From: a bacterium
GTDB lineage: Bacteria > UBA8248
DNA: 64,000 nt
Assembly (NCBI GenBank): GCA_965213685.1
Contig: CBDBZY010000064.1
Span: 1,152,001-1,216,000 of the forward strand
Reading direction: 5' to 3'
Below, piece after piece: positions 2,878 to 49,630 of the stretch. Every line of letters starts with the position of its first letter. The first letter of the stretch is position 1. The notes below the pieces were generated by a model, which saw only the letters and a list, made by a program, of their open reading frames with translations, did no database searches and had not been told where the DNA came from. The translations under genes and the position numbers were made by a program.

Positions 2878-3071
2878 AGAGGAAGAATAATCCAGGTCCT
2901 CCACCTCCACCACCTCCTAATGCCAGTGGTCAAGCAAGCAGGCCGAAGTCTAAGCAGCCACTTCCAAACCCAAAGCTAGTGAAGGTCAAAACACTTCCAA
3001 AGAAGTCTAGCCCAGGCAGTGTTAGCCCACAGACCCCACCTGCACCTTTGCCAAAGCCCTTTAAGAAGTCG
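2878..3071 (+). CDS. Host gene exon A (proline-rich segment) of a CABIT-domain adaptor-like protein
   Basis: Acceptor cttgtag|, donor |gtcagt; RKNNPGPPPPPPPNASG...PPAPLPKPFKKS. Ends in phase 0, compatible with exon B. Confidence 0.7.
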
Positions 3072-3306
3072 GTCAGTATTTGTCACTTATGCTGTATCTT
3101 GACCATGTTCTTGTACTGTATTGTGCTGCAGTTTGTCAGAGAGTCAGTAGACTCTGTATGTAAGAAAGGTTGCAACATGCCCACACTGTACATACATACA
3201 AAAGCCTTCTAAAGTCGCAAATGTTCACCCCTTCTAAGCCTTTCTGATAACCTACATAGCTATCCGATGTTCCTCAACACAATAAATGCATTGCTAGACT
3301 TACTAA

Positions 3307-5510
3307 TTACTTGATGTTAGACTCATGAAATATGCTTATTCAGCATGTCTGTATAGTCGATATACATATGTGCCTATCAATCTTTCTCTCTCTGGTCTCC
3401 ACTGGTCTCCCCCAGTCTCCCCGGTCTCTATTAGTCTCCCCCAGACTTTCTGGTCTCTACTACTAGTCTCCTCCAGTCTCTCTGGTCTCCACTAGTCTCG
3501 CCCAGTCTCTCTGGTCTCTACTAGTCTCTCTGATCTCTAACTAGTCTCCTCCAGTCTCTCTGGTCTCTACTAGTCTCCCCCAGTCTCTCTGGTCTCCACT
3601 AGTCTCGCCCAGTCTCTCTGGTCTCTACTAGTCTCTCTGATCTCTAACTAGTCTCCCCCAGTTTCTCTGGTCTCTACTAGTCTCATCCAGTTTCTCTGGT
3701 CTCTACTAGTCTCCCCCAGTCTCTCTGGTCTCCACTAGTCTCACCCTGTCTCTCTGGTCTCTACTAGTCTCTCTGATCTCTAACTAGTCTCCCCCAGTCT
3801 CTCTGGTCTCTACTAGTCTCTCTGATCTCTAACTAGCCTCCCCCAGTCTCTCTGGTCTCTACTAGTCTCTCCCAGTCTCTCTGGTCTCCACTAGTCTCGC
3901 CCAGTCTCTCTGGTCTCTACTAGTCTCTCTGATCTCTAACTAGTCTCCCCCAGTCTCTCTGGTCTCTACTAGTCTCCCCCAATCTCTCTGGTCTCCACTA
4001 GCCTCGCTCAGTCTCTCTGGTCTCTACTAGTCTCTCTGATCTCTAACTAGTCTCCCCGAGTCTCTCTGGTCTCTACTAGTCTCCCCCAGTCTCTCTGGTC
4101 TCTACTAGTCTCGCCCAGTCTCTCTGGTCTCTACTAGTCTCTCCGAGTCTCTCTGGTCTCTACTAGTCTCGCCCAGTCTCTCTGGTCTCTACTAGTCTCT
4201 CTGATCTCTAACTAGTTTCCCCCAGTCTCTCTGGTCTCCGCTAGTCTCGCCCAGTCTCTCTGGTCTCTACTAGTCTCTCTGATCTCTAACTAGTCTCCCC
4301 CAATCTCTCTGGTCTCTACTAGTCTCCTCCAGTCTCTCTGGTCTCCACTAGTCTCGCCCAGTCTCTCTGGTCTCTACTAGTCTCTCTGATCTCTAACTAG
4401 TCTCCCCAAGTCTCTCTGGTCTCTACTAGTCTCCCCCAGTCTCTCTGGTCTCTACTAGTCTCTCTGATCTCTAACTAGCCTCCCCCAGTCTCTCTGGTCT
4501 CTACTAGTCTTCGCCAGTCTCTCTGGTCTCCACTAGTCTCGCCCAGTCTCTCTGGTCTCTACTAGTCTCCCCCAGTCTCTCTGGTATGTACTAATCTCGC
4601 CCAGTCTCTCTGGTCTCTACTAGTCTCTCTGATCTCTAACTAGTCTCCCCCAGTCTCTCTGGTCTCTACTAGTCTCGTCCAGTTTCTCTGGTCTCCCCCA
4701 GTCTCTGTGGTCTCTACTGGTCTCCCCCTGTCTCTGCGGTCTCTACTGGTCTCCTCCTGTCTCTCTGGTCTCTATATACTAGTCTCAGTCTCCCCCAGTC
4801 TCTCTGGTCTCTACTAGTCTCCCCCAGTATCTCCTAGTCTCCCCCAGTCTCTGCGGTCTCCCTCAGTCTCTCTGGTCTCTACTGGTCTCCCCCAGTCTCT
4901 CCGGTCTCTGCCGTCTCCCTCAGTCTCTTCAGTATCTATTGGTCTATCCTAGTCTCCTCCAGTCTCTCTGATCTATGAGACCGGGGGAGACCAGTAGAGA
5001 CCAAAGAGACCAGTAGAGATCAAAGAGACCAGTAGAGACCAGAGAGATGGGGGGAAACCGGAGAGATCAGTGGAGACTAGAGAGACTGGGGGAGACCGGA
5101 GAGATCAGTGGAGACTAGAGAGACTGGGGGAGAGTAGTAGAGACCAAAGAGACCAGTAGAGACCAGAGAGACTGGGGAGACCACTAGAGACTAGAGAAAC
5201 TAGTAGATACCAGAGAGACTGGGGGAGACTAATAGAGACCAGAGAGACTGGGAGAGACTAGTAGAGACCAGAGACTGGGTGAGACCAGTAGAGACCAAAG
5301 AAACTGGGGGAGACTAGTAGAGACCAGTGGAGACCAAAGAGGCCAGTAGAGACCAGAGAGACTGAGGGAGACTAGTAGAGACCAGAGAGACTGGGGGAGA
5401 CCAGAAGAGACTGGGGGCAACCAGTAGAGACCAGAGAGATTGATGGGCATACATGTATAACTACACAGACATGCTGAATAAGCATATTTCGTGAGTCTAA
5501 CACCAAGTAA
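3307..5510. mobile_element. Foldback-type element: ~80-90-bp unique TIRs enclosing oppositely oriented minisatellite arrays
   Basis: TTACTTGATGTTAGACTCATGAAATATGCTTATTCAGCATGTCTGT at 3307 and its reverse complement ending at 5510. The ~29-bp CTCTGGTCTCTACTAGTCTCCCCCAGTCT array (~3390-4975) flips to its complement (~4976-5440). Confidence 0.85.
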
Positions 5511-5749
5511 CAACCCAGAAAATGGTCAAACCATCAATCTGTACTTAAGAGAGTTCTTTAAAATAACTTTTCCTGAAACTGGCTGAGGCAAACAGCACAG
5601 TTTTTACACAGATCCATCACATCCATGTAATATTTACCAAATGTGACCCTAGGTAAATGGAATCTTTGTACTCTTCCAAATCTGGTGAGCAGAAACTAGA
5701 AGCTCTATATGTTTCCCCACACTTAAATTTCATTTTCCAATATTGTCAT

Positions 5750-6070
5750 GTGGCACAGTGGGCTATTCAGCAGCGTGTCATTTGTATGCAACTCTTAGCC
5801 AAGAGTCTTACTGGGGAGGAGATTGCAAGGGAGTTACTATTTGTACTGCAGGCTCAGTATGGAATAGCTACTGGCTCACTAGTTGCTACTATGTGAGATA
5901 GAGCTTCAGTAAACAATCTTGCTATGTCAATTCTCTGTGTGATGTACCCTCATGTGCTAGATGTGGAGTGTTTTAGTCGTACGATTGATAATGCTGGCCA
6001 TAACTTTGCTACACCTGTCCTAGATGAGTTTGTATCCTCTTGGGTTTCATTGTTCTCACATAGCCCAAAG
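5750..6070 (+). mobile_element. hAT-type transposase fragment (same family as 60257-61780)
   Basis: QWAIQQRVICMQLLAKSLTGEEIARELL...M*DRASVNN...CFSRTID...PVLDEFVSSWVSLFSHSPK, with an in-frame stop. The last segment resembles PFLSQFIHSWTTLFACCPK near 61200. Confidence 0.65.
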
Positions 6071-7078
6071 CATGTACTAGTGTTGCTGTGCAAGCATTGC
6101 AGGGAAGACTACACAACAAGTACCCCATCCCTACATCTTTTTTATACATGACACCCTTTAGCAGGCTATGTTACATGTATGAGATTACTGGGGAAAGCGT
6201 TGTGCAGTAAAAATTTAGGGATGGGGTTACTTGCGTAGTCTTTGTATAACCTGTCTGCCATGCCTGCACACTGCCATCCCTACACCTAGTTTTTGTGGTT
6301 TTGGCACTGCCATCCCTCTACATTTATGGATGATCTTTTCTGCAAGTTTTTTGTATAATATATATGTACATGTACATGTAGTTCACTAAAGAGGATGTCG
6401 TTCTTGTGAGCTTTTTTCAGGGTTTAGGATACAAATCAGGGATTACAACAGCCTTTCCTATATATATGTCAGGGATGGAAACATGGAGGACAGGGAGGGT
6501 CTTAAGCACTCTCACTGTTTAAGTTGGGGGGCTGAGCCCCCCAAAGATTTTTAAGCTAGAGTAACTACCTCACTGTATATGATTGCACCTGGACGTCTAT
6601 TTCACACTGTAGACGTGGCACTTAAACAGGGCAGGCATTATATATGATCGTAAGGCTGTGTGTATTGTGAACTAATACTTGTCCATCTACGCTGTGTGGC
6701 TCAAGAGCCTTATGCTCTGTCTTCTCAGTAGTCCCTAGGCTTTCAACCTGGAGAACATGTCAAACAGGTTCTTCTGTGCCATCAAAATACGTGAAGTCTT
6801 ACTAGTATACATGTTTATATATATGTAGTACCACGTGATGTACTTATGCAGAAGCATGCCATGTCCCTCAGCTGGCACTCAACCCAGCATTTAAGGTGGC
6901 GGGTACACCATGCAAGCACAACAGTGGTCATTGACTGTCCAAAGTGTACAGCTAGCAGAAATCCGCTAACAGGCTTGACACAATCAGTAACAAAATTGGC
7001 CCATGTACATGTATCTATATTGGGTAGTATTTCCATATGAATGAATTCCTTTTAAACACTGCAACATAATATGTGCAG

Positions 7079-7279
7079 GTGAGTTCTGACAGCTTGAACA
7101 CAAAGAAAGATGGTGGATATGTGGTTACAGAGAATCTACCATTTTCGGAAGTGGTTAAAAACTACAAGGACCAATTTCCACTCCGAGTTAGAGTAAGCAG
7201 AGGTCACTATGGCCCATCAGAACTGACCACTGTTTCTGAAGGAGACACATACACTCTCCATTTTGTGAAGCATGCCAAG
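7079..7279 (+). CDS. Host gene exon B (start of CABIT-like domain)
   Basis: gtgcag| ... |gtgagt; 201 bp, phase 0/0; ENLPFSEVVKNYKDQFPLRVRVSRGHYG...EGDTYTLHFVKHAK matches the CABIT N-terminal pattern (l.e.v....FP..v.V..G.y). Confidence 0.85.
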
Positions 7280-8483
7280 GTGAGTTATGTGTTCTTGTAG
7301 GTATATACACATGAGTATTTCATGCCAGCTCTTAATGAACATATTCATCCATGTCAGCTGCATTGAACCTTGTACAATTAGGTTGCACCTTCATACGTAC
7401 ATACATACACCACACCTATGGTATTAGTGGTATATTGGGATTGGTTCAGCATCAAACCTGAAGATTTTCACTTTCACTGTGCATTTTTTCACATCTGAAG
7501 ATATTAAGGTAATGAATAGCCCAAAAGGAAACTCTTATTAAAAACCAATATATTGTACACAGTGTGAGATATTAGCCAAATGCAATATTGTAATTATTCT
7601 TCTTATTCAAAATGAATCAATAACCATAATGCCAACGATCATGAAACTGTACATGCTGGTAATAAGTGGAAACAAATCATAGCAGTATGTACGTATTTGG
7701 GATATGCTCTTTCTTTGTCTACCATTTCACTTCTTACAATACTAATGAATATCTGCATTTTTCAGTGTTCTGTACATTGCGATGCTGAATGTGCTGTAAT
7801 TGACATGATATAGTTGAAGAATCTGTGATAACTGACTAACTTGAATAGTCAATAGTGATAGAACGCTGGCATACAAGGTTACAAGTGAGCTTATACAGGG
7901 TCCTAGACTATATGATATAACACTCTGGAAATGTGCAGTGAGGATAAATGCAGGATATGATCTAAGTGATAGCATACATACGTATGTGGGTGAGCCCAAA
8001 GAGAAGTCTACAGACATACAGGTGACAAGTTGCACTATGCAGGAAGTAGGACCTAGTATGAACAAATATTGTAACTACTAGCAGTCAGTATGTCTCTACA
8101 TCTGAACAATTACTACAGAATCTACATGGAAATAGTAGTAGTGAGAGAGTTGTGCTTAGAATGGGCTTAAAAATGTTAACCCTTTCACTGCTTGTATTGT
8201 TACATTGTAATAGCTCTTAATGATCCCTAATGTCAACTGTAGGGCCACCTACTCACAGATTTTAATTGACCAATCCCCCACTCTGTGAACGTAGCTGTTT
8301 TGTTGGTCAGTATCAGCTGCATATTGGTAGCTGGAAGCACAACCCCCCTCACACCAACAAGCAGTTAGAGACAGACAGGTAGCATCATATACTGTGTACA
8401 ATTATGAATCTCATTAACACACCGCGTAACTGCTTACCAACATACAGCACAATGGTTAAGCTTAGCTTCTGGTTTGCATAGAT

Positions 8484-8536
8484 GGGCTAGGGGTAGGGCA
8501 GGGCTAGAGCTAGGGCTAGGGCTAGGGCTAGGGCTA
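8484..8536 (+). repeat. (GGGCTA)n variant telomere-like repeat, G-quadruplex-capable
   Basis: Four GGG tracts spaced by CTA at 8513-8533, preceded by degenerate units. Confidence 0.7.
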
Positions 8537-9022
8537 ACCATGTTTCAAAAGTATACGATGCTAATGGTCTGTCTCAATGGCTTGTCTCACACCACCCTTC
8601 AGGCTTACTGTAGGGAAAACATGGTAGCCCAAAGTGCTGTGTCTACAGTGCTATCAACAGGCTTACACTGCTTCCATGTAACAAGCTGGCTGCTCTACCA
8701 GCTGGGCAGGTGTTACACTTTGGTGCGCATGCACAGAGGAGTATACCATGTTGCACCAACACACTATCATAAATCTTACGTTTTCTGTGGTTTGAGGATG
8801 CTGATTGCTCTGGTGGTGATAGTGTTGGTGGTGGTGGTGGTAGTGGTGCAGTACATTGGGAAGGTGGGGAAGGTGGTGGGGAAACCCAGCTCTCAAGTTT
8901 GTCTGGAAAAAGCCTCTCAAGTTTGTCTGGAAAAAGTCTGTAATACCTCTGAAGTACAATTGTTTAGCTATTAGTTAGAGTACATGTACATGTACATGTA
9001 TGTACATAACAGGAGGTTAAGG

Positions 9023-9841
9023 CATAGATTCTATAAACCACGTAACTGGGATTGGAAACTAGATAATTATTGTGTCACATGATCATTATGGCTCAGAGGT
9101 GGGAGGAGAGTATTCGCTTGGGAGTGAGAACGCAAGTAGTCAGCTGTCTGCACGTATAGTCCATACCTTCGTTACAATTTGGAGTGGGAATGTTCATTCT
9201 GACTAGGTGGAGCCACCGCAGCATTATAAATCCATTCACGTATGTAAGCCTGACACAATACGTGAGAATACATGTTACAGTCTCATCCTTCATATCCTAG
9301 CAAAAGATCTTTCTAGTTTAACCACTATAGTCTAATCCCACATAGCCATTATAAAGCTGCCCAGTTCTGTCTGGACAGAGCTCTCTGTCCTGGCGTTGTC
9401 ATGCAGCATGTACACAAAGCTAAGACCATCCTTACCCTGTTGTGGACACGAGGCACACCGGAGTCAAGTACTTTAGCCTAATCCCCCATACAATGGAAAG
9501 GAAAATATGCGCTGGTGGCCTTTTTAAGGCTATGTTGGCAATGTACCGCTCTACAAAGGTACACAAAGTGAATGGAAGAGAAGTGACAGCATATTGTGGG
9601 GAAGAGCATGCTTGCGGAATATGAACACAGCATAGGTTGCAGACTTGGCTAAACACTCTTCGCGAGTCTATACTGCTTGAAACTAACAAGTCCAACCGTA
9701 GAATATACGTCCTTCTCTAAGAAAGTTTGTTAGGCGCCTGTAAATGTCCATAACTATCATCACACACGGACGCTTATACGCGCATACTGCACATCACATG
9801 AGTAGTTTCCAATCCCAGTTACATAGTCTATAGTATCTATG
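9023..9841. mobile_element. Non-autonomous TIR element with CATAG..CTATG ends and a 7-bp TSD (P/Galileo-like)
   Basis: Left CATAGATTCTATAAACCACGTAACTGGGGATTGGAAACTA; right TAGTTTCCAATCCCAGTTACATAGTCTATAGTATCTATG. Flanks GTTAAGG / ATTAAGG match at 6 of 7. Confidence 0.75.
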
Positions 9842-10379
9842 ATTAAGGTACTTAATGGGCAATTATACACGCAAGCTATTCAAAGCATACTGTGCGCATG
9901 TGGATAGCTGCATCTACTAAAGGGGGAAGGGCTGGTTGCAAGTGTGTGCACACGTGTTAATTTACACGTACAGTTTTACTTACCTTCCTTGTTGACTAGT
10001 TCCACATCCCACCTCTTTCCCTTTGTGTGGAAAGGCCACCACACAATCACCTTGCTGCCACCAAGGTACATGTAGTCCATTAGACTGCAGGAGATCTTGT
10101 GGACTTGGCCGTGGTACATGGAGTCTGGGCAATCCCAGTGCACAAACACCAGGTCTGCTTTGTTGGACGCCATCAATAGCTTTACTTGCTACTGGTTTTT
10201 ATCAGGTGATGCACAAGCGAAGAGCTAAGTTTTATAGTCACTGACTCCATGAAAACCTACATGTTGCAATGTGCATAGGCAAATTGAATATTCATTTGCG
10301 ATACATGCGTAAATACGTGAACAATTCGTGATTCTAGTGTTACCTTTTTTGTGGCACATACTGTATTTCTGTCTCAAAA

Positions 10380-12100: not shown

Positions 12101-12369
12101 ATTCGGTAGCACATATTCAGCACATCTTTTCGCCACTCAAAATGGTGCCCTAGCAACGCAGTTACGCGTTGCCATCTATAGCCAAACTGGTTTGTGGAAT
12201 AGTGTCTTCCACCTTTTCATGAGGTCAGTAGTGTGTGGAGAAACAGATACTGACACAGATTTAGACACAGGCATACACAGTATAGTAACATGTGGATAGA
12301 TCTACAGGTGTGTAGGTGTAGCTAGGTATGTAAGTACATATTGTATGAGGACTAGCTATATTCTTAGAG

Positions 12370-14570: not shown

Positions 14571-14629
14571 AATAACCTATTGTGTTACAACACAAATGAA
14601 TGAGCACTGTAAACACTACATTTGTACAT

Positions 14630-19960: not shown

Positions 19961-19991
19961 TTTACGTAGGTATTAGTATACTGATAGTACA

Positions 19992-21912: not shown

Positions 21913-22014
21913 GTTGCTAATGCAATGGATGAATATGGTATTTCCTACAAGATCACCCTTAATTCTGCTGTGGAGTTTGGAGTGGTGTGGGATGCTCCCA
22001 CTGAGGAGGGAAAG
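21913..22014 (+). CDS. Host gene exon C (CABIT-like)
   Basis: ttttccaaag| ... |gttagt; 102 bp, phase 0/0; VANAMDEYGISYKITLNSAVEFGVVWDAPTEEGK. Confidence 0.8.
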
Positions 22015-23700: not shown

Positions 23701-24195
23701 GGTGCTGAAGTATTCTTTGATCGCGTAGCAGATTTGCTTGCATTGAGTTCACCACCCAAAGTGGTACGTGCAATGAAGCAGTGGAGGGGGAGTGGCCCAG
23801 ATTCTACTGTGGAAGAAAATGAGCTGTTTGCCATTCAAAAAACCTCCAAAGCTAAATTAAAGAATGCACGAGTTCTCAAAGTCTACAGTTTGAAGTATAA
23901 GAAAAAGAAGATATTGCCTGAGCACTGTGTTGGTGGGTTTTCTGCTCGTCCATACGATTGCCGCCTGTTCCTTCCAGAAATAACAGAGCTAATACGTGAT
24001 AACCTGCCAATTAAAGTTATGCTCTTTGTGAACTCTGAAACAGCCCAGGAACTCCCTCAGTCTCTTGCATCTTCCATGGTTACTATTGAAGGTTTCAGCA
24101 CTGAGACCACAGTGGTATGTACCACTGTACTCCATGAGGGTCTCAGAAATGATAAGCTGGTGGACATCCCCATCGATCTTGACATCAGTGTGCAG
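23701..24195 (+). CDS. Host gene exon D (CABIT-like, largest exon)
   Basis: ctacacag| ... |gtacat; 495 bp open, phase 0/0; FFDRVADLLALSSPPKVVRA...LPEHCVGGFS...NLPIKVML...DIPIDLDISVQ. Confidence 0.85.
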
Positions 24196-24267: not shown

Positions 24268-24600
<333 letters not shown>

Positions 24601-29228: not shown

Positions 29229-29279
<51 letters not shown>

Positions 29280-32200
29280 CAAACTCTCCGAGATTTAATG
29301 TAGTGACCTACTCATCATGCAAGCAAAACTCCCAACCTTCATTGATTAATGGGTTGGGGGTTGGAGGTGTCGTGCAAGGGTCATTATTGCAGGGACACCA
29401 ACTGTAATTAATTATTACAGGGGCCCAGCCCTATCGCCAGCCTAGGACCAATTGGCCTACTCTGTCATTATCAGCTCTAATTGGCCCCTTTGAGGAAGCC
29501 CCTGCGATAATTATGCCCACCTCATTTAATTGCCCCCTTCTTACGCACAACACCCCTTAATGGACAAGGTGGCGCATGGGGTATCCAGCCAGCAAGGCTG
29601 ACAACCCACCCATAAAAGCTGGGCTACCAGCTCACCCCCATGCTCACCTTTATTCCCCCTTTTTCCTAGCCCCTTTAATACATTATTTAAATTTTTAGTC
29701 TATTTTGGCTAATATTCATATTTAACCTTTTTTTAAAATAATTATGCACAATGCAATTTAAGTGAACACTACAAAGGCAAGAAGCTACTAGTGAGATCCG
29801 TGAGCCAGTGCCCGGGAGACATTTGCCAGCTGTGCACAGGAAGCTTAATGTATAGTTTGTAGGCGTCGCTACGCCACCGCCCCAGAGTTTGGATGAGAGA
29901 GTCTTCCAGCCCACGCTGTGTTGCTGTTGTCGCAGCGCTGATCCGGAAACTGTGTCCATTGTAAGCTGTATCATCCAGGCCAGCCTGCCTGAGAGCTGCT
30001 TGCAAAGAGGATACAAGATATGCCCTGGTAAGGGGTGCTCCTGTGGAGCGCACGAAAAGGGGGCCCGGAGACGCTGGTCGAATGCTGATATATTGCAAGA
30101 GGGCCTAGATTGGGCAGACATCTGTTCCCAACCGGCCCATAAAGATTTCCATGCCCCGACAGTACGGGTCTGTCTTACTCTGCTTTAGCACCAGCCTCAC
30201 CATCAACGACTCAATATGGCTGTCCAGTGCCACATCACTGAGGCTCAGGTGAGTATCTGGGTCGTAAGATTCAGCTGATGGCACTGTAAACTCGCCTGCT
30301 CAAAGAAAGCCAAAAAACCCTGTGCACGCTGCGGCCCAGAGCATAACCCCATCAGCCACAGTAGGCTGGGCCAGCCACACTCTGCGCAGGCACTAGAGGA
30401 TCTCCATGGTTATGGGGAGCCTGGCATGTGACACGCTGCCACCTCTGGCCTCAACCTGCTTAATGCCCGTGAGGACATACTCCAGTCTAGGGAGAGGATT
30501 GGAGAAGGGATTGCCCAACCCTTGTTGGATCTGGAGGCAGCGAATTCCGGACAAATACGATTTATTGACCAGTGTTTTAGACCATCCTTAGCAAGGAAGG
30601 CTACGTATCTGCATAATGTGCCCTCCTGGAGAGGGTACGGGTTAGCCACTCCGTACTTCAAGCAGAAGGCTCCGTATCAGCGTTGTGCTGATTTGTAAAT
30701 CACACGAGTGGCAGGTGTAATGCAGTCTCCCAAGAAGCCCTCAACAGCAGCATCCAGCTGGGTGATGTCCAGTGCAGGTCGCGGTTGAACACCAGCTCTC
30801 GGAGCTCTACTGGGATAATTGCTGGCACTGGAACGCCTGTGGGTTGAGAGAGAAAAACAAATGGAGGCGGTTACAAGACAACGCGTCAGCTGATGCATTT
30901 TTTACCCCAGGCAGGTGATGTGCAGTAATGCGCATGTCTCAAATCGCTGCCAGGAATGCCAGTATCCTGAGCAGGTGCGACAGAGTGGGGTCCCTAGCTG
31001 CGCCCTTGTTTACCGCCCTGACGACTGTGGCATTGTCGCAGAGGCACTGGACATGTCTGCCTGCCCACTGTGGGCCCCACAGAGTGGCTGCTACAACTAT
31101 CGGAACCAGTTCCTTCGGAACAATAGAGACTGCAGCCCATGATTCAGGCCACTGGAGCTGGAACCAGCAGTTGCCATGAAAAGCTCCACAGCCCCATGCC
31201 CCAGAAGCATCTGACACCAGTTGGAGGGGGGGGTCCTGCCGGAGGCACAATGCTGGTTCCACTCCACACACTGAGGAATGTGTGCCACCAAGCCAGGTCT
31301 GCTCGCGCTGAGCTGTTGAGGTGGACCCAGTGATCAAGCTCTTTACTGCCACTGCTGCATGAATGAGACTACACAAGAAGGCCCTCCCCGGTCTGACTAC
31401 GGACGCTGTATGGTGCAGGAGGCCTAGCAATGAGAGTAGGTCCCGTTTCTTCCCAGAGCTCTGCGGTGTTGGCTGCTCAGACCGACTCATCCATGCAGCA
31501 ATGGTACCAGTTAACCAACCGAGCTTGTCTTGTGGAAGGCGGATCTATTGCTGCTGGGTGTCAATCTCGATGCTAAGAAATGTGAGTGCCGTTGTGGGGC
31601 CTTCAGTTTTGTCTTCGACCACTAGGAAACCCAACTTGTCGCAGAGTGCCAGAATCATCAACAATGCCGTGCCACATGCAGGCTGATCAGGGTGACCCTG
31701 GACCAGAAAGTCATCGAGGTAGTGTACAGTTGCATGTACACCCCGATCCCGGAGAACCCACATCATGGCATCTGTCAGGGTTGAAAACAGTTTGGGGGCT
31801 GAGCGTAGGCCAAAAGGTAGTGCCTTATTGAGGTAGGATGTGCCATTATATGACACTGCCAACAGCCGCTGATCGGACAGGTGTACCGGGACTGCCCTGT
31901 AGGCCTCCTTGAGGTCAAGTTTTGCCAGCAAAGTGCTTGGCCCTAGCGACTTGGCCAGCTCAAAAGCATGGTCCAGTGAGGCATAGGACACCGAGCAGAG
32001 GTCCTGTCTGATGGCATCATTCACATTGTGCCCCTCCAGGGAGGAGGGATCCACGATTAGCCACCACTTGTCTGGCCTATTCTTCTTGGGAATGACTCTG
32101 ATAGGGCTGATCTGCAGGAGAGGTGGACCCAGCTGAGGTTTTGATGGGATGATGGACATGCGACCCAAGTCCACCTCGCGAGCCAGGTACGCCAAGATCA

Positions 32201-35165
32201 CATCAGGCCTCTCATAAGCCGAGCTGCGATTTTGCCGGCAGGGTACAGACGTGGCCCCTTCCATCACACCAATGTGGAAACCGTCTGAGAGGCCCCTCAA
32301 TAAGAATGCAGTAAATGCTCTGTCTGGGATGGACTGGAGAGCCCTTTCCCAGGCAGTGGGGCGAAGTGGAAATATGATAGTAGCCAGGTAAGGAAGAGGC
32401 TGTAGGGCAGCAGATGCCAGCTCCAGCTGTAGCAGGTCTTGCGTAAACCGGTAGGAGCCCTTAGAGAAGTTTTTTGAAATACCATACGCCCTACATAGCA
32501 ATAGCAAAGCAAAGACCATTTTGTCCATCCCACCAACAGGTGGACAATGTGAATGTCACTATGGACCCACTCCTCCAGATGCCCAAGGGGTTGGCTTGAC
32601 AGCGGAACTGCTGGTGAAGGAGAGCTCCCTGCATGCCATAGCTTGTTGGGTGCCATAGCAGTACAGGCAGATGTGTGCATAGGTGCACTTCCCTGGGAAC
32701 TTGCAGCTCCCACTGTTCCACGAGGAGCAGATAGGTCGCTGGCGGGTGTAGGGGGCTGGCTGCTTCCCCTTTCCAGATGTGCGCTCCGAGCCTGCCACTG
32801 CAGAAGGTGAGTCAGTTGCACTAGTCCGTGGCTTCGGGAGCACTGCCATGACCACACACTCCAATGAGGTGTGGTCAATCTTAGTGCTGCAACGAATGCT
32901 GTTTTTGTACATCTGAGTACTTGTGTACTTTAACGAGCGAATAATCGGATACTCATTCCATTGTTTTCATTGGTTAGACCACAGTTTACAAAACTTCATG
33001 TTGGTAGTGAAGGCCACGTGAGGCGAACTAATGGTCACCAGCAATTCTTCCTTGATACCACTGTACAAACGTCGACAAGTAGCAGTGATGTGCAGGCGAG
33101 ATGGAACTTGGTATCCTGGCTCCACGTAGTTCATTAGCTGCCTAAAGCCTGTGCCATCCACGGTGGAAATTGGCTTCAAGTCTCGCGCAATAAATTCTGC
33201 TATCCGATTTGTGATGGCGCTGGCACGCTCCGGGGGGCAACACTTAACACAGTGGAATGAGAACATCGTTGCCTGCTTCTTTGTACCACTATCAGAATCT
33301 CCTGTAGCAGTCTTGTGGGCAACGGGATGCTTCGATTCAAGGTGGTTAAGAAGGTTGGTCGTGCCACCGGTGTATGTCAGTTGCAGTCTGTCGCACAGCG
33401 AACAAATGGCTTTCTTGGTCTTTCTTCCTTCCTCATCAGTAACCTCTGCTAATTCAAAACTCCCGCACTCGACTAGTTCGCCTTCTTTTCGCCATATCTC
33501 ATGCACATACTAACCCTCGCTAGTACTACATTCACACCACGTGTTAGCCTACTGCGCATGTGCATATGTCCAAGTCCGAGTACTCGGACCCAAATTTCTG
33601 GATTCGAATATGAGCAATCAACCGAATACTCGAGCAATGCAAATATTCGTTGCAGCACTAGTCAATCTCATTGCAGTGCTTACAGGGGGTTGCCACTCTC
33701 CCCTGCTGATTTGCGATATACACTTGATGCAGGGATGCATCAATGTAGTTCCATGGGGAGGATAGCCCCACCTGGTTCCTGCGGAAGACTGCGTCATAGG
33801 TGAGCCACCCACTCCCACCAAATTTACTGGCCTCTCGCACGGTGAGGCGCATGTATGCCAGCATGTCCCCCACTGTAGCAGGGTGAGCCTCCGCCACGAT
33901 TGCCACATACGTCACAAACGAAGACACCCAGGTCATGAAGGCCTTCTCTCCCGCAATCTCCCTCTCGCCCAGATGTTTGGAGGGTGCCAAACCTTGAGGA
34001 AGAGCTACTAGACACTCCGCGAGGGCCAGGTTGTCCGGGAGCAGCTCCCGCATGTCAACATATTCCAGGGCCTGTATACGACTGACCAGTTTCCCTGGGA
34101 TGGGGACAATGCTCCTGGCAACCTTGTACGGTGGCTTCGTCTGTTTCCTCTCCCCCCACTGACATAGATGGTCCTGGTAGTGATGGCATAAGTGCCACTC
34201 CAGAGCTGACTAGTGCTGTCGAGATTGCCCCACTCGACGCCAATGATGAAGGGAAAAGTGGTAGAGTGCCTGCAGATGCTTCAAAGAGCGGAATGCTTGG
34301 GAGGAAGAGATGGTGCAATGACAGTGCTGCTGGCTGTGAGGGAACCTAAGGCAGCAAGACAAGAAGAAACAATGAGTTGCCCCGTACTCCACGCACTGCT
34401 CTGCCACTCATGTTTCCCTGTGGGAACCTCCCCGACTACCATTAACGCTCTACCTCCCCCGCTGCACCCGCAGAACTCCCACTCATCAATTGAGGAAACC
34501 TGAACAAGACGCCCGCAAATTGGCATTAATTTTTTACACCTGACAGGCAGGCAGCGGAGTAGCGCCATGCGTACTCTCCTCGCATATATACGTACCTGGT
34601 CCATGCGTCAGACGGGCTAGAGCAGTCACCATGGCTGCCGCCACCTCCTCATGAGTCAACTGCCACACTGCCTCCTCGATCATCGCATGGTTCCACTCGT
34701 CGCCCCGCGGCTCTCCGTCTGTCTCCACGGGTTCGTGAGAATGGCGAGGAGTCTCTGAGTCCACCATTGGTCCTTAGGAAATAGCACAACACTGAGCAGA
34801 GAGGGTTCAGCTGCCACTGCGTATTCCTGCTGGAACTGGATAGCCTGCACTCACAGGTGTGATGCTCGCTTGCCAGAAAGGCGCAATAAAGCCACAATGC
34901 TGCACATGCAATGCGCATGCTCCGAAGACGCCTGCCACCCCCGCATGCGCAGTGGCTCCCTATGTACCAGGGTAGATGGGTGATTGCCAACCAGCCAGCG
35001 CTATGCACTCCCCTGTCATTCAGGGCCCAAACTTGCTCAACCCCCAGCCAGCCTTGGAGGTCACAGCACCAATGGGGCCTGCCGCCCATGCACCAATTGC
35101 CGGCTGCATACACCAGCGCCGTACACTCCTATGTCCTATATTAACTCTGTTTAATTATCATTAAA
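29280..35165 (-). mobile_element. Near-complete DIRS/Ngaro-type tyrosine-recombinase retrotransposon copy 2 (gag with CCHC and CCCH fingers, RT, RNase H, YR)
   Basis: RT ORF 31545-32528 (LAKLDLKEAYR, LPFGLRSAP, HYLDDFL); RNase H (SDASGAWGCG, KELVPI, CDN); YR (FGFL.AGEF, SKTDP, YNGHSFRISAAT, LGRWRSDAYKLY); a few stops and frameshifts. Outer boundaries are approximate. Confidence 0.92.
32882..33660 (-). mobile_element. Non-autonomous hAT element with a BED zinc-finger fragment and a perfect 8-bp TSD, nested in DIRS gag
   Basis: GTCAATCT|TAGTGCTGCAACGAAT ... ATTCGTTGCAGCACTA|GTCAATCT; ORF KAICSLC...GGTTNLLNHLESKH...IARDLKPISTVDGTGF. Confidence 0.92.
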
Positions 35166-35929: not shown

Positions 35930-36113
35930 ATAATGAAACCTGCCAGTGGAGAACAACAGGACCACTTATTTGAAGACACAAAAAATGTTCTGGAAAACTT
36001 CAACCCATCACGCTTGCAACCTTTGTTTAAGCCAAGTGAAGGCAGTAATTCTGACATCTACAACACACAAGCAGCTTTGTTCTGTATGCCCAGGAAAGGA
36101 AATGAGTTTACAG
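35930..36113 (+). CDS. Host gene exon E
   Basis: aatacag| ... |gtgtgt; phase 0/1; IMKPASGEQQDHLFEDTKNVLENFNPSRL...GNEFT(G). Confidence 0.75.
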
Positions 36114-36129
36114 GTGTGTTGGAAACAGA

Positions 36130-36172
<43 letters not shown>

Positions 36173-40870: not shown

Positions 40871-40899
40871 CATTGGTGTTATAATTATATATATGTACA

Positions 40900-41524
<625 letters not shown>

Positions 41525-42255
41525 TGAAGGTCACCTATATAATGGTACGTGTAGTATATTTTCCCCTGCATGGGCCAAGCTGGTTCCCAGCTTTTGGGCC
41601 TAGAGGTCAGCCTGTCAGCCGGATGGCCCATGCAGCATAGAGCAAGGTTATTGTGGAGGGTCAAAGGTCAGCAACTGTGAGCGCATGCACAGCCAAATTG
41701 CAACTGTACATAAGAGTCTTTCCCATAATCAATTAGGCCTCCTTAGGGGCCCATGCTGTTGGATGACATCAACAACTGCGAGCTCTCGAGCCTAGCCACA
41801 AGTCTGACCTGCCCCGACCCTGCGCAGCCGAACCCTCACACAATAAATACCTGCTTCACAAGAAGCGAGGTAGATGTTGACACCAAAGTATGGTGTACAA
41901 GTTCATTCAAGGTAAGCCACGTCCATTAACCATTCACCACAATGGAGCTCCACTCCACTGCCTTCATAACAAGGGGAAAGCTACACATGTACGTAGGTGG
42001 AACATGTGAAGTTATTCATGGAGTGTACATGCTTGGAAGCCATTGTCCAAGTGGCTCCAAAATGTAAATGTGAAACTACAAAATGTATATACATTATGTG
42101 GTGTTCATACATTTGGTCAGGGTGTGTGAAACCCCCTTTCCGAAGGGCTGTAGCTTGGAACGGAGCATGTGCATACATATGTATGTGTGTACATTTATGT
42201 AATGTACATACAAGCAGTGTTACATACATGTACATACCTATGTGCACTTCCACAG

Positions 42256-42446
42256 GCATAAAGGTGGAGATGCCGAGCGCATTATATGTGAATTCACCCT
42301 TCATTAGTGATGCCAGTGATGTGTCAAATCTGAGTACTATTCATCAAGCATCTAAATCAGTGTCCCCATGCTCAGTCAGTGAAGATCAACTCATTTCTAC
42401 AGAGGGTCCAGCCTTGACATTGGATATGATGCAGGAGAAAGTAAAG
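42256..42446 (+). CDS. Host gene exon F (contains LYVN motif)
   Basis: ttccacag| phase 1 completes the Gly codon from exon E; (G)IKVEMPSALYVNSPF...LDMMQEKVK. The donor is at 42447 (gtttgt) or alternatively 42441 (gtaaag), both phase 0. Confidence 0.72.
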
Positions 42447-43139
42447 GTTTGTAATTGCAAGTTATGCAGGAACTCTGTTTTAAACTTAAATTTGGTTTAA
42501 AATGCAAAGTTAGGAGGGCACTGAGGAAGCAATATTAATAGCTATGAGAACTGTATGTATGCGTGGATTTACAGTATACAGCAATTAGTGTGAGAGTGTA
42601 CTGAGTGTCCAGTACATGTATGTCTAACTGTCCATCTGAAATCTCTGCCCATACAAGACAGGGTGCATGGTCTATAGTTGCTATTGTAGCATGTTGAGTC
42701 ACGCACAAGTGTGTACATACGCATGTACATGCACATATGTTACAGCCAACCTGCTTGCAGCCAGCTGCTGGCTTCAAATCAGGTTAATTGACACCCTTTG
42801 TATGGTATATTGTACTAACCAGTTTGCCAGGTGTTGGCTGACTGACTTGTGAAGCCAATTTATTTCCTGGTGTACCAGAAGTGTTCTCTGAGGGTTTAAA
42901 ATTTAAATATTTTCTGGGGGAGCATGCCCACAGACCCTCCTAGATGGCACACTAGTGTGTAATACCCCTGCCCTTGCAAAATTTCTAAGTTCTCTTTTGT
43001 CCCCCCTTGAAGAAGTTCCTGCACAAAACACTGACTGGTGAGGCCAGTTAGCTTCTCCCCATTTTCTAGCCTCTGTGCATAAAGACACTGCTATTGTTTA
43101 GTTGTGCTAATTTATAGCTGTCTGGCACAGCAAGTGATA

Positions 43140-43585
43140 CCATATGGCGCCAAAGTTTCAAGGAGCATAATTTTCATGGTTTCGCTGATTAGCTTCAAAC
43201 CACGAAAACTATGCTCCACAAAATAACACTAAGTTCTCGAAGACGCGTACGTTGCTGCAAATTCAGCTATATAGTTGGTGATTGATCAGTGGTACTCTAT
43301 TGCTACTGCAACAATCTGACGATAAGCTGCGTAATCCTTGAGGTCCCTGACAGCCAATCTGAGAGCCAGTGAAAAAGGGTTTGTATGCTAAGGTCACCAG
43401 AGAAGCCAGCAGTAAAATGTGATGTTGCTGCAACCAACCATCTGTTACTATGAAAAACACTTGCGGCTATCCAGAAGTAGGCATGGCTAACTTGAATCCT
43501 TGTGATCCATGAAAATTGTTTCCATGAAACTTCCAAAAATGATATTCCACGAAAATTGTGCTCCTTGAAAATTTGGCACCATACG
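43140..43585. mobile_element. Tc1/mariner-type MITE
   Basis: ta|CCATATGGCGCCAAAGTTTCAAGGAGCATAATTTTC ... GAAAATTGTGCTCCTTGAAAATTTGGCACCATACG|ta. Confidence 0.65.
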
Positions 43586-44309
43586 TATGGTACGTACATG
43601 CATTTCACATCTCATGAATATAGTGATTGAATCACCAGACAAGCTTAAAGATAGTGACCTTGAAGAAATTTGGGGGGGGGGGAGGCTCCAGTAAGAAGGG
43701 GCTAATACCCCCCACACATAAAATTCTGCCAGTCCTATCCTCATTCCCTGGCACACTACAATGTATGTACATATGAGTGACCAAGGGATACCTTTTGGTA
43801 GAAATGAATGGAGTATATAGTAAGCTGTGCTGGAAGCCAGTCTGTTGTGCACTGTTCAACCAGTCAATGCAGCCAATGTCTGATCTTTTTGAGTGGTTAG
43901 TGTGTATGCAGCATACAGTTTGTACAATGAAGGTGTGTCAGATGTGTACCTACATACATACATGTAATTACATGTATGTACAATGTACGTTCATATTCAC
44001 ATGCATGTAGGGCCACATGCAGTGCACCAGAAGAGAAGATACACCCGCAGAAGCCCATAGTATGATTACGTACTGTACCATGATGCATTCTAATAGTCAT
44101 TTATGACCTCAGCTATGACAAGAACACCAAGGTTGCCATGGTAGCCTGTGCATCTCGGCCAGTTACATATGTCTAGGGGCAGCAACAGCTTTGACAGGAC
44201 AGCTGTAGAACAATAGGGTTGCCATGGCAGCCATATACCCTGGCTACCTAGGGTATAATAGGGTTTAATGGTTATTAAACCGTTAACTGGAGGGGAGACA
44301 GCAATAGAA

Positions 44310-46010
44310 AGTGAGGTGCATGGGTCAAGCTAAGCGCATGCGCACTGGGGCTGACTGTGTGGACAGCAGTGGCAGCACCAACCAGCAGTGTTTGCGTTTG
44401 CATTCTAAGCAGTTACCCCCTCGAGGGTGCATCAATGGGGGACGAGCAAAGTGGTCAGACGGAAGAGAGCAGGGCTGGACGGCCTGCGGTGTCGGAAACA
44501 GCAACATTCTCTGCAAGCCAGAAGCAGGTCTGAGAGGTGCTAGGCGAGGCCCCTCCTCGTCCTTCAAACTGGATGGTCACTTCCTGGCCGAGGATATCAG
44601 ATCCCCAGCCCCTAGGCAACAGGGAGTGGGCCACCGATGGGGGACTTGACCAATGCAAATGTCACTTAGAGTAGTTATCACCCGTCACCTGTTACTCTCA
44701 GTTCACATATAACAGTATAGTAGTAAATTGATAAATCAGCACATCTAGTCAAAACAGCATGTTATTCTCAACCAATTAACCCTACAATAGTCAAGCATAA
44801 TGGAGGAGGGGGTGACCAATGCAGTAGGGTGGGGCTGTCGTGGTAACAACCCTTTAGCATTCTACACTCTCCCCTCACAGGGCCTCAAACGTCTGGTTAC
44901 CCATATGGCCAGCACCTCCTAGAATTTGAGAGGAGAACAGGAGCAACTGGCGGGGTCACCGCCCCATGGCTGCAATGCGTGCTAAGATGGAGCACATAGC
45001 ACAAGAAGCTGGAAGGTCATCCAGACCCTGTCTTGATAAAATATGTCACAAATGGCATTCAGCAGGGCTTCAGCATTGGCTTCAACAGATCGGTTGACCG
45101 CAGCCTGGTCACATCCAACATGAAGTCTGCCCTGGACAATGCAGCTGTTATACAACAGTACTTGGAGGAGGAGAGGCTGCTGGGCCATATTATCAGTCCG
45201 ATGTCTCCAGAGTTGGTACATACCTACTGGGACACAGTTGAGCCCTATTGGGGTAATCCCCAAATCGAGTCAGCCAGGTAAAGGGAGGCTCATTGTGGAT
45301 CTTTCAAGCCCACAAGGTCAAAGCATTAATGATGGAATTGAGCCAGAGCTCTGCTCGTTGGAATACCTTCGACTGGACAAGGTGACTAATCATATTGCAG
45401 GGAATGGCAGAGGGTCCCTGCTAGCAAAGTGGAAATTGCTAGTGCCTACCAAATGGAAAATGTGCAGGACCAACCACATCCTTGGTATTCTTGGGATTTG
45501 AACTGGACACAGACGCCCTAGTAGTCAGGCTACCTCAACCATAACTTCGGCGGACACAGAGGCTGGTGCAGGAGTGGTTGTCCAGAAGAGCATGCAAAGA
45601 GCACAACCTAGAGTGCCTACTTGGCCACCTCCAGCATGCTCCAATGGTCATGTGCCCAGGTCGGACATTCATATGCAGACTAATTACTTTCTTCCAGAAC
45701 AGAGACCACTAGATTAAGCTGAGTTGTGTGATTCGCTCGGACCTCCTGTGGTAGAGCTGCTTCATGGAGGACTGGAACAGCATCTCCCTTATGCCCAGAG
45801 CAAGCCCTCACCAAGTGCTGCTGGTTTCAGACGCATCAGGCTCATGGGGCTGTGGAGCATTCTGGGGAACCCACTGGTTTCAGTGGAAGTGGGAAGACAG
45901 AGCTGCAGACTGGTCGATTGCACCAACTTGCCAACCCTTTTTAGTGTAGCAGTGTGGGGCAGCCAGTGCGCTGGCTCTAGGATGGAGTGCCACTGCAATC
46001 TCCAACTGAT
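44310..46010 (+). mobile_element. DIRS/Ngaro-type fragments (end of gag, RT, RNase H)
   Basis: YVTNGIQQGFSIGF; LSPIGVIPKSSQPGKGRLIVDLSSP; LVSDASGSWGCGAFWG..WFQWKW; MECHCN. Confidence 0.85.
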
Positions 46011-46019
46011 GGCAGGAAG

Positions 46020-47740
46020 ATTTGTAGGGGTAGTGTGGCCACATCAGCAATGGGAGCATCGTTTGGGAGATCCCTTCCTGTGATACGGTCTCAAGCAGCA
46101 TACGCATGAAACCAATAGTGACCTTCCTTACCATGGACTGGTGGGAAGTGTGCTGGAGTACATGTAGGTCACCATTGTCTCCAATGATCTGGTACGAGGG
46201 ACAGTCACCTTTAAGAGTATTGAATAAAAGAGCAACAGTAAAGACTCTGCATACACACAGAAACACTGATATCCTTTTGGTATGGTTAGCACATCACCCA
46301 ATACCAAGTAATAGTTGGGTATATGTATGTTCATGCAGTGTGGAATGTGCTGATAAGTATCTTTTAGGCAATCAATCCAACCTGAGTTTATCAACTGACA
46401 GCATCCTTCCATTTCAGCACTTTTTTGTCAAAGTCAGTTGCAAATTGGTCCACCTTATTCAGAGTTGCATCTGGTGACACAGCCATCTATAGATTATTTA
46501 GGCGAATGTGGATGAAAGAATACATTTCAGTCATACAGTAGAACAAAACCACAACATTTCACAACATGCCAACTTGCTAGCATTTCCATGGAAGAGGACA
46601 AGCCCAGAGATGTGATGTGCACTCGTGCACATTCCGTTGCCTTAGCAAAACTGCATCCACTCTACAGATACCAGCAAGGGTACTACGTACCCGACTCTGA
46701 TAGATCAACATTGGCAGCAGTGGCCAAGAATTGTAATAACAGTGGAGCAATAAAAGCCAACTCATTAGTGAGCTGGCTAAATGAGAATGAAACTAACCCT
46801 TGAGGCTGGAGTCCACGTAATACAGAAGACACTGTTTCTTTCTGGCAAAGAGCCAAACAGCCAAACACTGTCGGTGGAGATCCTGCAATATGTGTTTCAC
46901 AGCAACATCTTGCATACATCCTGGATACAGGATTGCCTCTATTACTGCCTCCACATCCCCTTTTGCAATGGCTTCTTCAAGTACCTAAGTGTTGGCAAAA
47001 GTGGGCTAGGTTTGACTGCTAGTGAAAAGCACTGAAGTACAGAACCCCTCAGCGCAATATGGCGAAATTCATACACATGCGCCAGCCTAGCTGAATAACA
47101 TGACAGCTGCTTGTGACAGGGGGGCAAGGTCCTCATGACCTCGTGGATGCCAAAGGGATTTTCGAAGGTAAAACATGGGCACAAGCGGAATTGGGAAATA
47201 GTGCACAATGAGGAGCTGGTGTAGTTAACTTCTCCTGCGCAACTTCAACTGGTAATTTGTGATGACACACTGGAGCTGGCGACTTTGAGTGCTCTTTTGT
47301 GTTTCTAGCCTCAGAGAGGGGTCTCTTGGCTAGAGGAGAAATTCCACTTATTCCCAATGGGGAAGATCAAGGTAGTTTCTCCGGTCAGCTGGGAAGCCTA
47401 GGCGGAGTCAGGCTCAACATGGCCTTGGCTGGTGATGGCTGCATGTTGCACGGGAACACTGGAGCAGGAATGAGTTTCTGGATAAGCTGTCTCCAGGACT
47501 TTTCATAGCGCTGCTTCTGTTTTGCAGCTGTCAATATACTCCCTTGACAGGACCAACACACAGAATCTGAACAAAGTCATAAATCGGCTCCAGCAACTGC
47601 TCATAGTTGGTGAAACAAGTCCATCGGCCAGCACCTTCTCTCAATCGATATGTATCCTTGAATAGATTACTAACCTTACAGACAGCACTAACAGGCACAG
47701 CAGCCATTACTGTTCAATTCACTGTACATTCTGCGGTTTG
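46020..47740 (-). mobile_element. Decayed Academ-type transposase N-terminal region (DUF6589-associated)
   Basis: YQIIGDNGDL...HQSM...HYWFHAYAA.DRITG across shifted frames, resembling the GDN.D...H..H.ya..DR motif preceding DUF6589; heavily disrupted. Confidence 0.55.
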
Positions 47741-49476
47741 TTTACACACCGGTACTGTATCTATGTGGATGATAGAGCATGCATGCTCTATTATCAATGC
47801 TTGAACAAACCAGACTAGCTCAGGCCTAGACACTAATGCTTGTAAGGCCACACTTAATAATGACTTCTTCCTAATAGCCACATTGAGTTGTGAATTCACA
47901 ACCACTATGATAGGGACAACATTTCTACAAAGGACTGCCCTTACTGGGGTCATTACTCAAAGATTTCTTAAGCACATAATAATGAAATGAGTATTTACAA
48001 AGACTTGTGTGTTCATTGAGTGTGCACAAGTGTAGGGAGGGTAATGCATATGACTATGTTAATTACACACTTAATGAACTATGCATCAAGCCACCAAACC
48101 TTAACCCTACATCCTTTCTACAGCTGTTTTGTAACATAGCAGTGAATTTTTGAAAGTGGCTTGTATTCAAGTACACTGCAGTAAAAGAGATGGAAATGGA
48201 GTTAGTGCCCCTTGTGTATGTGCATGCATACATACATACATACATACATACATGTACATTCTCACTCATGCTTACCCTCCAATGTTCAACATTTCAATCA
48301 TTATGTTCAATGCCATCATTTTTGCCTTGCTTACACAGTGCCATGCATACGTATGTACTGTCCTGTGTGTCTTGCTGTGCAGATAGATTCAATGTAGGTA
48401 GACAGACAGACTAATAGACAGACACACAGACAGACAGACAGGCAGGCAGACTGACAATACAAATAAAAATACCAATAAAACATACAAAAGATTGAAAGAA
48501 CTAGCCATTAATTATATATGAACACAAAATGAGCGATACAATATGCTACATATTTTTTGACAAAACAGATATGTTGTGTAAGAGGGGATGGTAGGAAGTA
48601 TCGGCAAGGTGTTTGTATTGCAGAGACAAATATAACGGTCAGTCAACGGACAAAATCTAGACGTACGTATCATGTGACTGAGCATTTTGTACCGCAGTCT
48701 GACAAATTACTGGTCGAAAGTACACGGCTATCAGCGCTTGGTTATCGCAGCAGATGCTGTTTTCAGCTGTCAGACCATGTCAGACCATTCTTTGGAGTGG
48801 TCTGACACATTACCAGACCATTTCCAAAAATGTTATTTGTCTCTGTGTTGCTATTTTGTGTATTTGAAAGAGTTTTTTTATTTGTCCATGTACACTGTGA
48901 GAAGGTAACACTCACTTTCATGGCTTAAGTCTGTTATCAGCTCACAATCTCTGCAATCGTTGGACCATATATATTTCACGAACAGTGTGTCTTGCATACG
49001 AAGTACTTTCATGCCGACCTAGGCCTTTCATTACACAATACAATCATAGAAGAATATACAGTAGAATATTACTACTGCAATAGAAGACTGATGCCACAAT
49101 TTACATACTTGTTATACATGTGCTACACCTAGTGGCTATATAGAGCCCACTCACTTGTTCAGGCTGGAATGTGAAGTACAGCATTTCTCCAGCTTATATA
49201 TATGTACGTACCTCTGATGAAAATTGGTATACAATATCTTGTAACCTTACACATCCATGTCTCACAAGTCCATGTCTTTACCCTGGCACTTGAGAGTACC
49301 TTTTGTCTTTTTTTATATTCACCTTCCAACTTCTCAGCCAAGCAGCCCATTTCTGTAGTGTTTGCAAACTCATGAGTCACTAGAGGGCCATGACTAGACA
49401 AGGAGATCATAGTATATGAATTGTCTATATTTTCTTCCATAAGTGACATGCCTGTGTATATTGACTTCCCAACTAG

Positions 49477-49630
49477 GGATTACATGAAAAATTTACCAAG
49501 CTGGATAATGATACTAACTCAATCAGAGCAGAAGTAAAGCAAGTGGAAATTGGCCTGATAAGAACACAAGGTGACGTTGCAGAAGCTAGAGTGGAAATTG
49601 CTGGAATGAAGCCAGATATCCAACATATCG
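49477..49630 (+). CDS. Host gene exon G (coiled coil)
   Basis: ttcccaactag| ... |gttggt; phase 0/1; open; GLHEKFTKLDNDTNSIRAEVKQVEIGLIRTQGDVAEARVEIAGMKPDIQHI with heptad periodicity continuing LDMMQEKVK. Confidence 0.65.

Follow-up and report, generated by a model that had tools for sequence, protein, structure and literature searches.

The 64,000-nucleotide (nt) window analysed here is C64:1152001-1216000 on contig C64 (CBDBZY010000064.1) of the 8-Mb assembly G000, which is filed as a bacterium. Seven short intervals in it (E1 to E7), scattered over 46,753 nt, had been read in an initial annotation as exons of one hidden gene for a CABIT-domain adaptor. Are these intervals parts of one real gene, and what kind of protein does it encode? 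We conclude that they are very probably exons 2-8 (or 1-7) of a single protein-coding animal gene of the CABIT + SAM kind, probably from a sponge.

The exon set and its extension beyond the window

AG stands directly before each of the seven intervals and GT directly after it, and the splice phases fit at every border. Their lengths (194+201+102+495+184+191+154) add up to 1521 nt, or 3.25% of the span. When joined, they contain no stop codon in one frame (506 codons, from 2880), whereas 27 and 47 stops interrupt the two alternative frames. The open frame of each exon closes within a few codons beyond its borders, with the exception of an in-frame ATG at 2853, which lies nine codons upstream of the E1 acceptor and has a stop directly before it. 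The peptides PLPNPK, PAPLPKPFKK and LYVN, to which the initial annotation had drawn attention, are all found in the product. In borders, phases and open frame, the seven exons were thus confirmed. Positions below are those of the window.

E1, 2878..3071, + strand: in frame from 2880, with AG/GT borders and an open frame; proline-rich N-terminal region with a P7 run, PLPNPK and PAPLPKPFKK
E2, 7079..7279, + strand: linker and start of the CABIT domain, by BLASTP to the database protein P0007
E3, 21913..22014, + strand: CABIT, with a conserved 'LNSAxxFG' block, by BLASTP to P0007 and family alignment
E4, 23701..24195, + strand: largest part of CABIT, with the core motif LPEHCVGGFSARP...LFLPEI and its Cys codon at 23926-23928
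E5, 35930..36113, + strand: C-terminal extension of the CABIT region, by BLASTP to P0007
E6, 42256..42446, + strand: LYVN (Tyr codon 42285-42287), Ser-rich linker and start of the coiled coil, by open frame and phase
E7, 49477..49630, + strand: coiled-coil segment ending in phase 1, continued in E8, which lies beyond the window, 22.9 kb further downstream

A tblastn search of the 8-Mb assembly with the spliced product recovered the seven exons and 13 other places, all of them on C64. The matches at these paralogous places (25-36% identity) were mostly single uninterrupted high-scoring segment pairs (HSPs) that crossed the proposed junctions; one of them covers amino acids (aa) 9-405 of the spliced product at E 7e-55. 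An independent search with E4 gave 14 matches in G000, again all on C64, and no match in any of 60 related prokaryote genomes. With E4 alone as query, phmmer found 453 relatives at E<=1e-3, of which 193 stood at E<=1e-10, among 1.84 billion representatives. BLASTP placed E2 on residues 66-116 (E 1e-15), E3 on residues 130-145 (E 2e-4), E4 on residues 159-315 (E 1e-36) and E5 on residues 330-377 (E 1e-6) of P0007, a protein that is positive for the Pfam CABIT model, and these matches were in order and did not overlap. The alignment is good at the junctions E2/E3, E3/E4, E4/E5 and E5/E6, with a gap of one residue at most. At E2/E3 the alignment is gap-free, as are the alignments of E4/E5 and E5/E6 to P0004 and P0006. 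E7 lines up collinearly with the corresponding stretch in P0010, P0025 and P0033. Using E4, a search for longer homologous proteins found none and a protein atlas search gave no usable match; scans of genome contigs and metagenome contigs for orthologous loci likewise found none. In four genomic runs the introns are covered and no joint occurs at an exon border, these being genomic reads that are silent on expression. We consider the exon set to be far beyond chance, and homology settles, without recourse to RNA, that it is a gene.

The initial annotation had proposed looking downstream for a SAM domain, and this was borne out. An exon for a SAM domain lies shortly after each of the paralogs, and corresponding exons follow E7; a candidate first coding exon was found upstream.

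Candidate first coding exon, C64:1138272-1138377 (L022:2272-2377): 16.5 kb upstream of E1 and 13.7 kb before the start of the window
E8, C64:1224530-1224732: heptad-rich, opening with the two bases that complete the last codon of E7
E9, C64:1233138-1233257 (L001:17138-17257): first part of the SAM domain
E10, C64:1241300-1241398, stop included: second part of the SAM domain

E8 ends in a conserved pre-SAM linker motif, NRRYLASLDVEQ, followed by |GT. The same motif and GT close the large exon of at least eight paralogs (CAG|GT) and truncate several database proteins, which indicates that a phase-0 intron after the pre-SAM motif is family-wide. E9 scored 34.9 bits with Pfam SAM_1 (cut-off 23) and 24.0 bits with SAM_2 (cut-off 20.5), the two models being PF00536 and PF07647. 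Against PDB sequences E9 of the window gene gave one match, at 0.086, and a paralog SAM exon matched the SAM domains of liprin-beta and SARM1 at E 9e-7 to 2e-4. The SAM domains of liprin-beta and SARM1 oligomerise. Over aa 7-641 the 10-exon product (646 aa) aligns with P0010, a protein of 628 aa, at its residues 30-620 (E 5.3e-85); its alignments with P0025 and P0033 run nearly end to end.

In the candidate first coding exon an ATG stands two bases after an AG; the exon begins with the peptide MSESDEEYEDI and ends in a CAG|GTACCA donor in phase 1, as E1 requires. With this exon the full model comprises 11 coding exons, with a coding sequence of 2049 nt for 682 aa, one ATG and one terminal stop. 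It spans 103,127 bp (C64 ~1138272 to 1241398), is 2.0% coding, and has 10 introns of 1.7-22.9 kb that total 101 kb, so that the 64-kb window lies wholly inside the gene. All seven exons counted by the initial annotation are real, although the count itself was incomplete, as the gene runs past the window on both sides. Recovery of a 103-kb gene of this kind from raw sequence by frame and splice logic is also of interest for annotation.

The 31.5 kb between E7 and the first SAM exon leaves room for a division into two genes, namely a CABIT/coiled-coil gene ending near E7 or E8 and a separate SAM gene downstream. The join is a prediction, and SAM exons at 577 kb and 617 kb of the contig have no adjoining CABIT match. 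Against this division, E7, E8 and E9 are in phase; the pre-SAM motif at the end of E8 is followed in at least eight paralogs by GT and then a SAM exon; P0010, P0025 and P0033 each combine these parts in a single chain; and no stop occurs before E10. We regard two genes as very unlikely. By phase, the pre-SAM motif and collinearity with P0010, the CABIT and SAM exons are predicted to belong to one gene.

The CABIT domain, predicted architecture and short motifs

The CABIT family was reportedly defined by Johnson et al. in 2009, and the initial annotation had assigned the middle exons of the window to it. The Pfam CABIT model (PF12736) has a curated cut-off of 24 bits, which was passed by three of the 10 homologs scanned (P0007, 44.7 bits; P0008, 37.7; P0014, 47.1) and by three of seven paralog open reading frames (ORFs) from the same genome (L004, 36.2 bits; L006, 30.2; L007, 40.1). 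It was also passed by 34 of the 83 members of alignment A1, with no other globular family competing. The most conserved block of the family is LPxxCxGxF(S/T)TxP...RLxLPEI. This core motif is found in E4 of the window gene as EHCVGGFSARPYDCRLFLPEI, and >=90% of the 83 aligned sequences have its cysteine (C76 of E4). CxGxF[ST] is present in 115 of the 145 family members of at least 400 aa. In Pfam-positive members the core cysteine lies at domain-relative position ~145, which is comparable to Cys152/Cys413 of THEMIS. Published accounts of THEMIS describe these two residues as 'universally conserved' and buried, within a 24-residue Cys-containing 'Core' motif that begins near the cysteine (PMC13381594; bioRxiv 10.1101/2024.10.01.616165; PMC3931654). 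The published CABIT fold consists of a beta core with an inserted SH3-like head. From the homologs and paralogs that pass PF12736 and from the conserved Cys core motif, the assignment is supported: the middle exons probably encode a CABIT-family domain.

The window gene has one CABIT-homologous region (aa 80-400), and a comparison of E2 with E4 for an internal CABIT repeat gave no alignment. A separate observation is a weak second HSP of E2 (E 0.006) to residues 171-194 of P0007, within the part that matches E4, which hints at an internal repeat.

With a SAM domain downstream, the predicted architecture is GAREM-like, that is, CABIT and SAM with an added coiled coil. GAREM is laid out as a single CABIT with a C-terminal SAM (PMC8086153). 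The window gene shares with GAREM1/GAREM2 (FAM59A/B), vertebrate proteins that associate with Grb2 and regulate Erk/MAPK, one CABIT, a C-terminal SAM, Pro-rich and Tyr regions and the absence of a catalytic domain. It differs in that the Pro-rich region is N-terminal to CABIT and in that a coiled coil of ~110 residues separates CABIT from SAM. The likeness is one of layout, taken for GAREM from a published figure legend, and the published Grb2 and Shp docking motifs are not found here. THEMIS and THEMIS2 share with the window gene the CABIT family and the Cys-containing core motif; however, THEMIS has two tandem CABIT domains, PxRPxK and no SAM, whereas the window gene has one CABIT, no PxRPxK and a SAM. 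The initial view that the architecture departs from both THEMIS and GAREM therefore did not hold for GAREM, since the SAM exons give a single CABIT with a C-terminal SAM. The gene belongs to the known CABIT + SAM kind, is ordinary within it apart from being unusually stretched, and has no new architecture.

From N- to C-terminus the protein would consist of a YEDI acidic Tyr motif (in the candidate exon only), a Pro-rich region, CABIT, a semi-conserved tyrosine, the coiled coil, NRRYLASLDVEQ and SAM, with the ~110-residue coiled coil lying between the semi-conserved tyrosine and the pre-SAM linker motif. The coiled coil was called with a home-made heptad score, which exceeded the 99th percentile of shuffles at aa 444-491 and 502-554 of the 646-aa model; database echoes of it are confined to coiled-coil families below threshold and coiled coils in PDB. 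If THEMIS and GAREM are taken as models, the protein, which has no enzymatic domain, may act as a cytoplasmic scaffold downstream of tyrosine kinases. Its CABIT domain and its Tyr and Pro motifs could bring in partners of the SH2/SH3 or phosphatase type, and self-association into larger platforms could be driven by the coiled coil together with SAM. In published work on THEMIS, the CABIT domains and a proline-rich sequence clamp the C-terminal SH3 of Grb2 and modulate SHP-1 (PMC13381594), and GAREM is described as a Tyr-phosphorylated partner of Grb2 with CABIT and SAM (PMC8086153).

The initial annotation had gone further and proposed a novel invertebrate adaptor, with a Pro-rich region, CABIT, pYxN and a coiled coil, that would stand apart from THEMIS and GAREM and dock Grb2 through LYVN and PxxPxK/R. 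The motifs that it quoted are in the sequence, published CABIT proteins do bind Grb2, and the tyrosine of LYVN is common to ~8 of 21 aligned homologs. The asparagine at +2, however, is shared with P0012 only, and one YxN in the product compares with 0.6 expected from composition, which is the level of chance. PLPNPK and PAPLPKPFKK do not fit PxxPx[KR]. With the Grb2 SH3 preferences as defined in PMC13381594, the 682-aa model contains no PxxPx[KR], PxxPxR, PxRPxK or PxxxRxxKP, and it has no ITIM-like (immunoreceptor tyrosine-based inhibitory) motif; LPpYEEL was not found in the product, and [RK]xxPxxP occurs once. A different proline pattern, P.?P[KR]P, is present upstream of CABIT in 28 of 115 members compared with eight of 115 downstream, where there are 3.7 times more residues; the version in the window gene is PLPKP. 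The description of the motifs as 'Grb2-type' thus fell away, and with a SAM domain downstream in the manner of GAREM, the novel adaptor is improbable in comparison with the CABIT + SAM gene set out above.

The acidic Tyr motif of the candidate first exon belongs to a class, [DE]..Y[DE]x[IVLP] in the N-terminal 45 residues, that was found in 18 of 145 members, compared with 2.6% of other 45-residue windows. MSESDEEYEDI may be a conserved phosphorylation or docking site; we take Y-E/D-x-I/V to resemble the ligands of Src-family SH2 domains.

Relatives and family history

The thirteen paralogs on C64 belong to the same family as the window gene, have the same domain order where complete and share the phase-0 pre-SAM intron. 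In contrast to the window gene and its 101 kb of introns, at least eight of them are compact: one exon covers the whole stretch from the Met up to the pre-SAM motif, and the exon for SAM lies 85-822 bp further along (6.4 kb in one). The SAM domain itself is split by an intron in the window gene, unlike in the paralogs. A tandem array of nine CABIT-SAM genes, mostly with one short intron, occupies 62 kb on both strands at C64:749000-811200. Elsewhere on the contig, SAM exons at C64:577120-577317 and 617165-617362 are near-identical to one another, have no CABIT match beside them and probably represent a duplicated gene of another SAM family. One of the CABIT-SAM paralogs adjoins L017 (C64:399758-402148), a single-exon gene with a protein kinase, a filamin repeat and an NHL beta-propeller, for whose family 4775 relatives, none of them named, were found in the database at E<=1e-20.

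The CABIT region was used for a quick maximum-likelihood tree of 100 rows, after six of 106 sequences with <220 residues aligned had been dropped. The window gene stood beside P0006 and a clade from Ephydatia with an SH-like approximate likelihood ratio test (SH-aLRT) value of 94, just under the threshold for a star. The 12 rows from its own genome were scattered, with 11 label changes, and each lay next to foreign sequences, which suggests that the CABIT-SAM family diversified long ago. Closest to E4 are short database proteins, P0001 (90%), P0002 (60%), P0003 and P0004. The ends of these proteins coincide exactly with the E3/E4, E4/E5 or E5/E6 borders and carry read-through residues, and so introns are probably present at the same sites in related genomes.

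The window gene is the sole family member on C64 with long, repeat-bearing introns, and its end branch in the quick tree is 0.85 compared with a median of 0.38. Both features would suit a decaying or silent copy that has been stretched by transposons and is unexpressed, the compact paralogs doing the work. A decaying copy would hardly be expected to retain 682 open codons with a start, one stop, 20 canonical splice sites and the family-invariant residues. Moreover, the 90%-identical E4 ortholog P0001 and relatives of 45-60% show intron read-through at the same places, which argues that the intron-rich structure is old and maintained. Decay is therefore an unlikely account. From these comparisons, an intron-rich structure appears to be a maintained trait of the subfamily to which the window gene belongs.

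P0010 is Em0002g638a of Ephydatia muelleri and is 88% identical to P0154, listed at NCBI as 'hypothetical protein EMCRGX_G007863'. It has the acidic Tyr motif, Pro-rich region, CABIT, coiled coil, pre-SAM motif and SAM in the same order as the window gene; it is, however, only 32% identical to it, unnamed and unstudied. Our literature search found no paper on CABIT proteins of sponges, and the main text of the Ephydatia genome paper contains no occurrence of CABIT or Themis. It is possible, though we put it forward tentatively and as doubtful, that the window gene belongs, together with its relatives, to a large and ancient clade of CABIT adaptors, as yet undescribed, with a fixed architecture and comprising 453 clusters at 50% identity. 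The proposed layout is M-S/A-D-S-D-x-Y-E/D-x-I/V, Pro-rich, CABIT, coiled coil, pre-SAM motif and SAM. Should such a clade exist, the CABIT + SAM layout of GAREM would date to the base of animals, with an oligomerising phosphotyrosine scaffold as its ancestor, and gene structure would have evolved along very different lines in the intron-rich subfamily and in the compact tandem arrays.

CABIT function is still described as debated even for THEMIS. A protein with one CABIT domain that exists in many diverged copies in an early-branching animal would provide natural variation for mapping conserved surfaces, and a simpler system in which to ask what CABIT domains bind. In other respects the window gene is unremarkable among members of this known domain family.

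Source of the DNA and content of the introns

The bacterial bin of G000 was scored as 94% complete. Nevertheless, 12 of its contigs of >=20 kb (4.81 of 7.97 Mb, 60%) are eukaryote-like, with a guanine + cytosine (GC) fraction of 0.43-0.54, long-ORF cover of 0.21-0.57 and (TG)n microsatellites, and the eukaryote-like contigs share repeats with the window. The other 31 contigs of >=20 kb have a GC fraction of 0.63-0.69 and near-complete ORF cover, as in a high-GC bacterium; genomes of the same genus measure 2.9-4.6 Mb. A search for HSP70 matched bacterial contigs only. As GC, ORF cover and microsatellites split the contigs into two classes, C64 is most readily explained as mis-binned DNA of a host animal and G000 as chimeric. 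A GTDB-type bacterial 'genome' can thus be 60% host-animal DNA, which matters to users who mine this bin. CABIT has been reported as metazoan-only and the named relatives come solely from a freshwater sponge, so the animal would be a sponge or a similar early-branching form.

Several points weigh against the interpretation of the locus as an animal, probably sponge, CABIT + SAM gene. All of the junctions are predictions from sequence alone, and E1/E2, E6/E7 and E7/E8 fall in poorly conserved regions, where frame, phase and general collinearity are the sole basis. By itself the candidate first exon gave a non-significant tblastn match (E 0.46), and the ATG at 2853 is an alternative start. When the window exons were scanned singly against Pfam, no CABIT match was obtained, which can be attributed to the division of the domain over E2-E4 and to the distance of the family from the Pfam seed; the closest full-length relatives, P0006 and P0010, themselves fall short of Pfam CABIT at E 0.01. 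Against PDB sequences the family profile gave weak coiled-coil matches alone (E >= 0.016), with no sequence-level match to a THEMIS chain, and the CABIT region of a paralog gave nothing at E <= 10, so that the link to THEMIS and GAREM runs through the Pfam model alone. The Grb2 SH3 motifs known from the literature are all absent. Finally, the suggested sponge origin follows from the sole named relatives only.

The introns had been described initially as filled with transposable elements. In the window they contain the following elements.

Intron 1, 3402-4968, followed by a reverse-complement array at 4977-5439, no strand assigned: minisatellite, by Tandem Repeats Finder
116 bp after E4, 24311-24477: (TG)83
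Intron 4, 31545-32555, - strand: reverse transcriptase ORF, Pfam RVT_1 49.4 bits
Intron 4, 32967-33509, - strand: zf-BED ORF, Pfam zf-BED 30.4 bits
Intron 7, 60257..60802, - strand: hAT transposase remnant, Pfam Dimer_Tnp_hAT 36 bits

A scan of the window for Rfam families (at gathering score) and tRNA found nothing, and when 24 intronic ORFs of >=150 aa were scanned against Pfam, 20 matched no family. The exons were without other copies in the repeat comparison, apart from four hits touching the edge of E5. In the four genomic runs some intron bins reached a depth of 10^3-10^5, compared with roughly 10-80 elsewhere. The description of the introns was correct in part: in agreement with it are the RVT_1, zf-BED and hAT ORFs, the high-depth segments, and the further copies that ~30% of the 46,753-nt span has elsewhere in the 8-Mb assembly.

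The minisatellite of intron 1 extends over 1.5 kb with units of ~29/78/107 bp, and together with its reverse-complement array it forms a large imperfect palindrome (3402-5439). A segment of intron 5 (40978-41529) gave ~22,000 BLAST hits in the 8 Mb and had a depth of 10^4-10^5 in the genomic runs.

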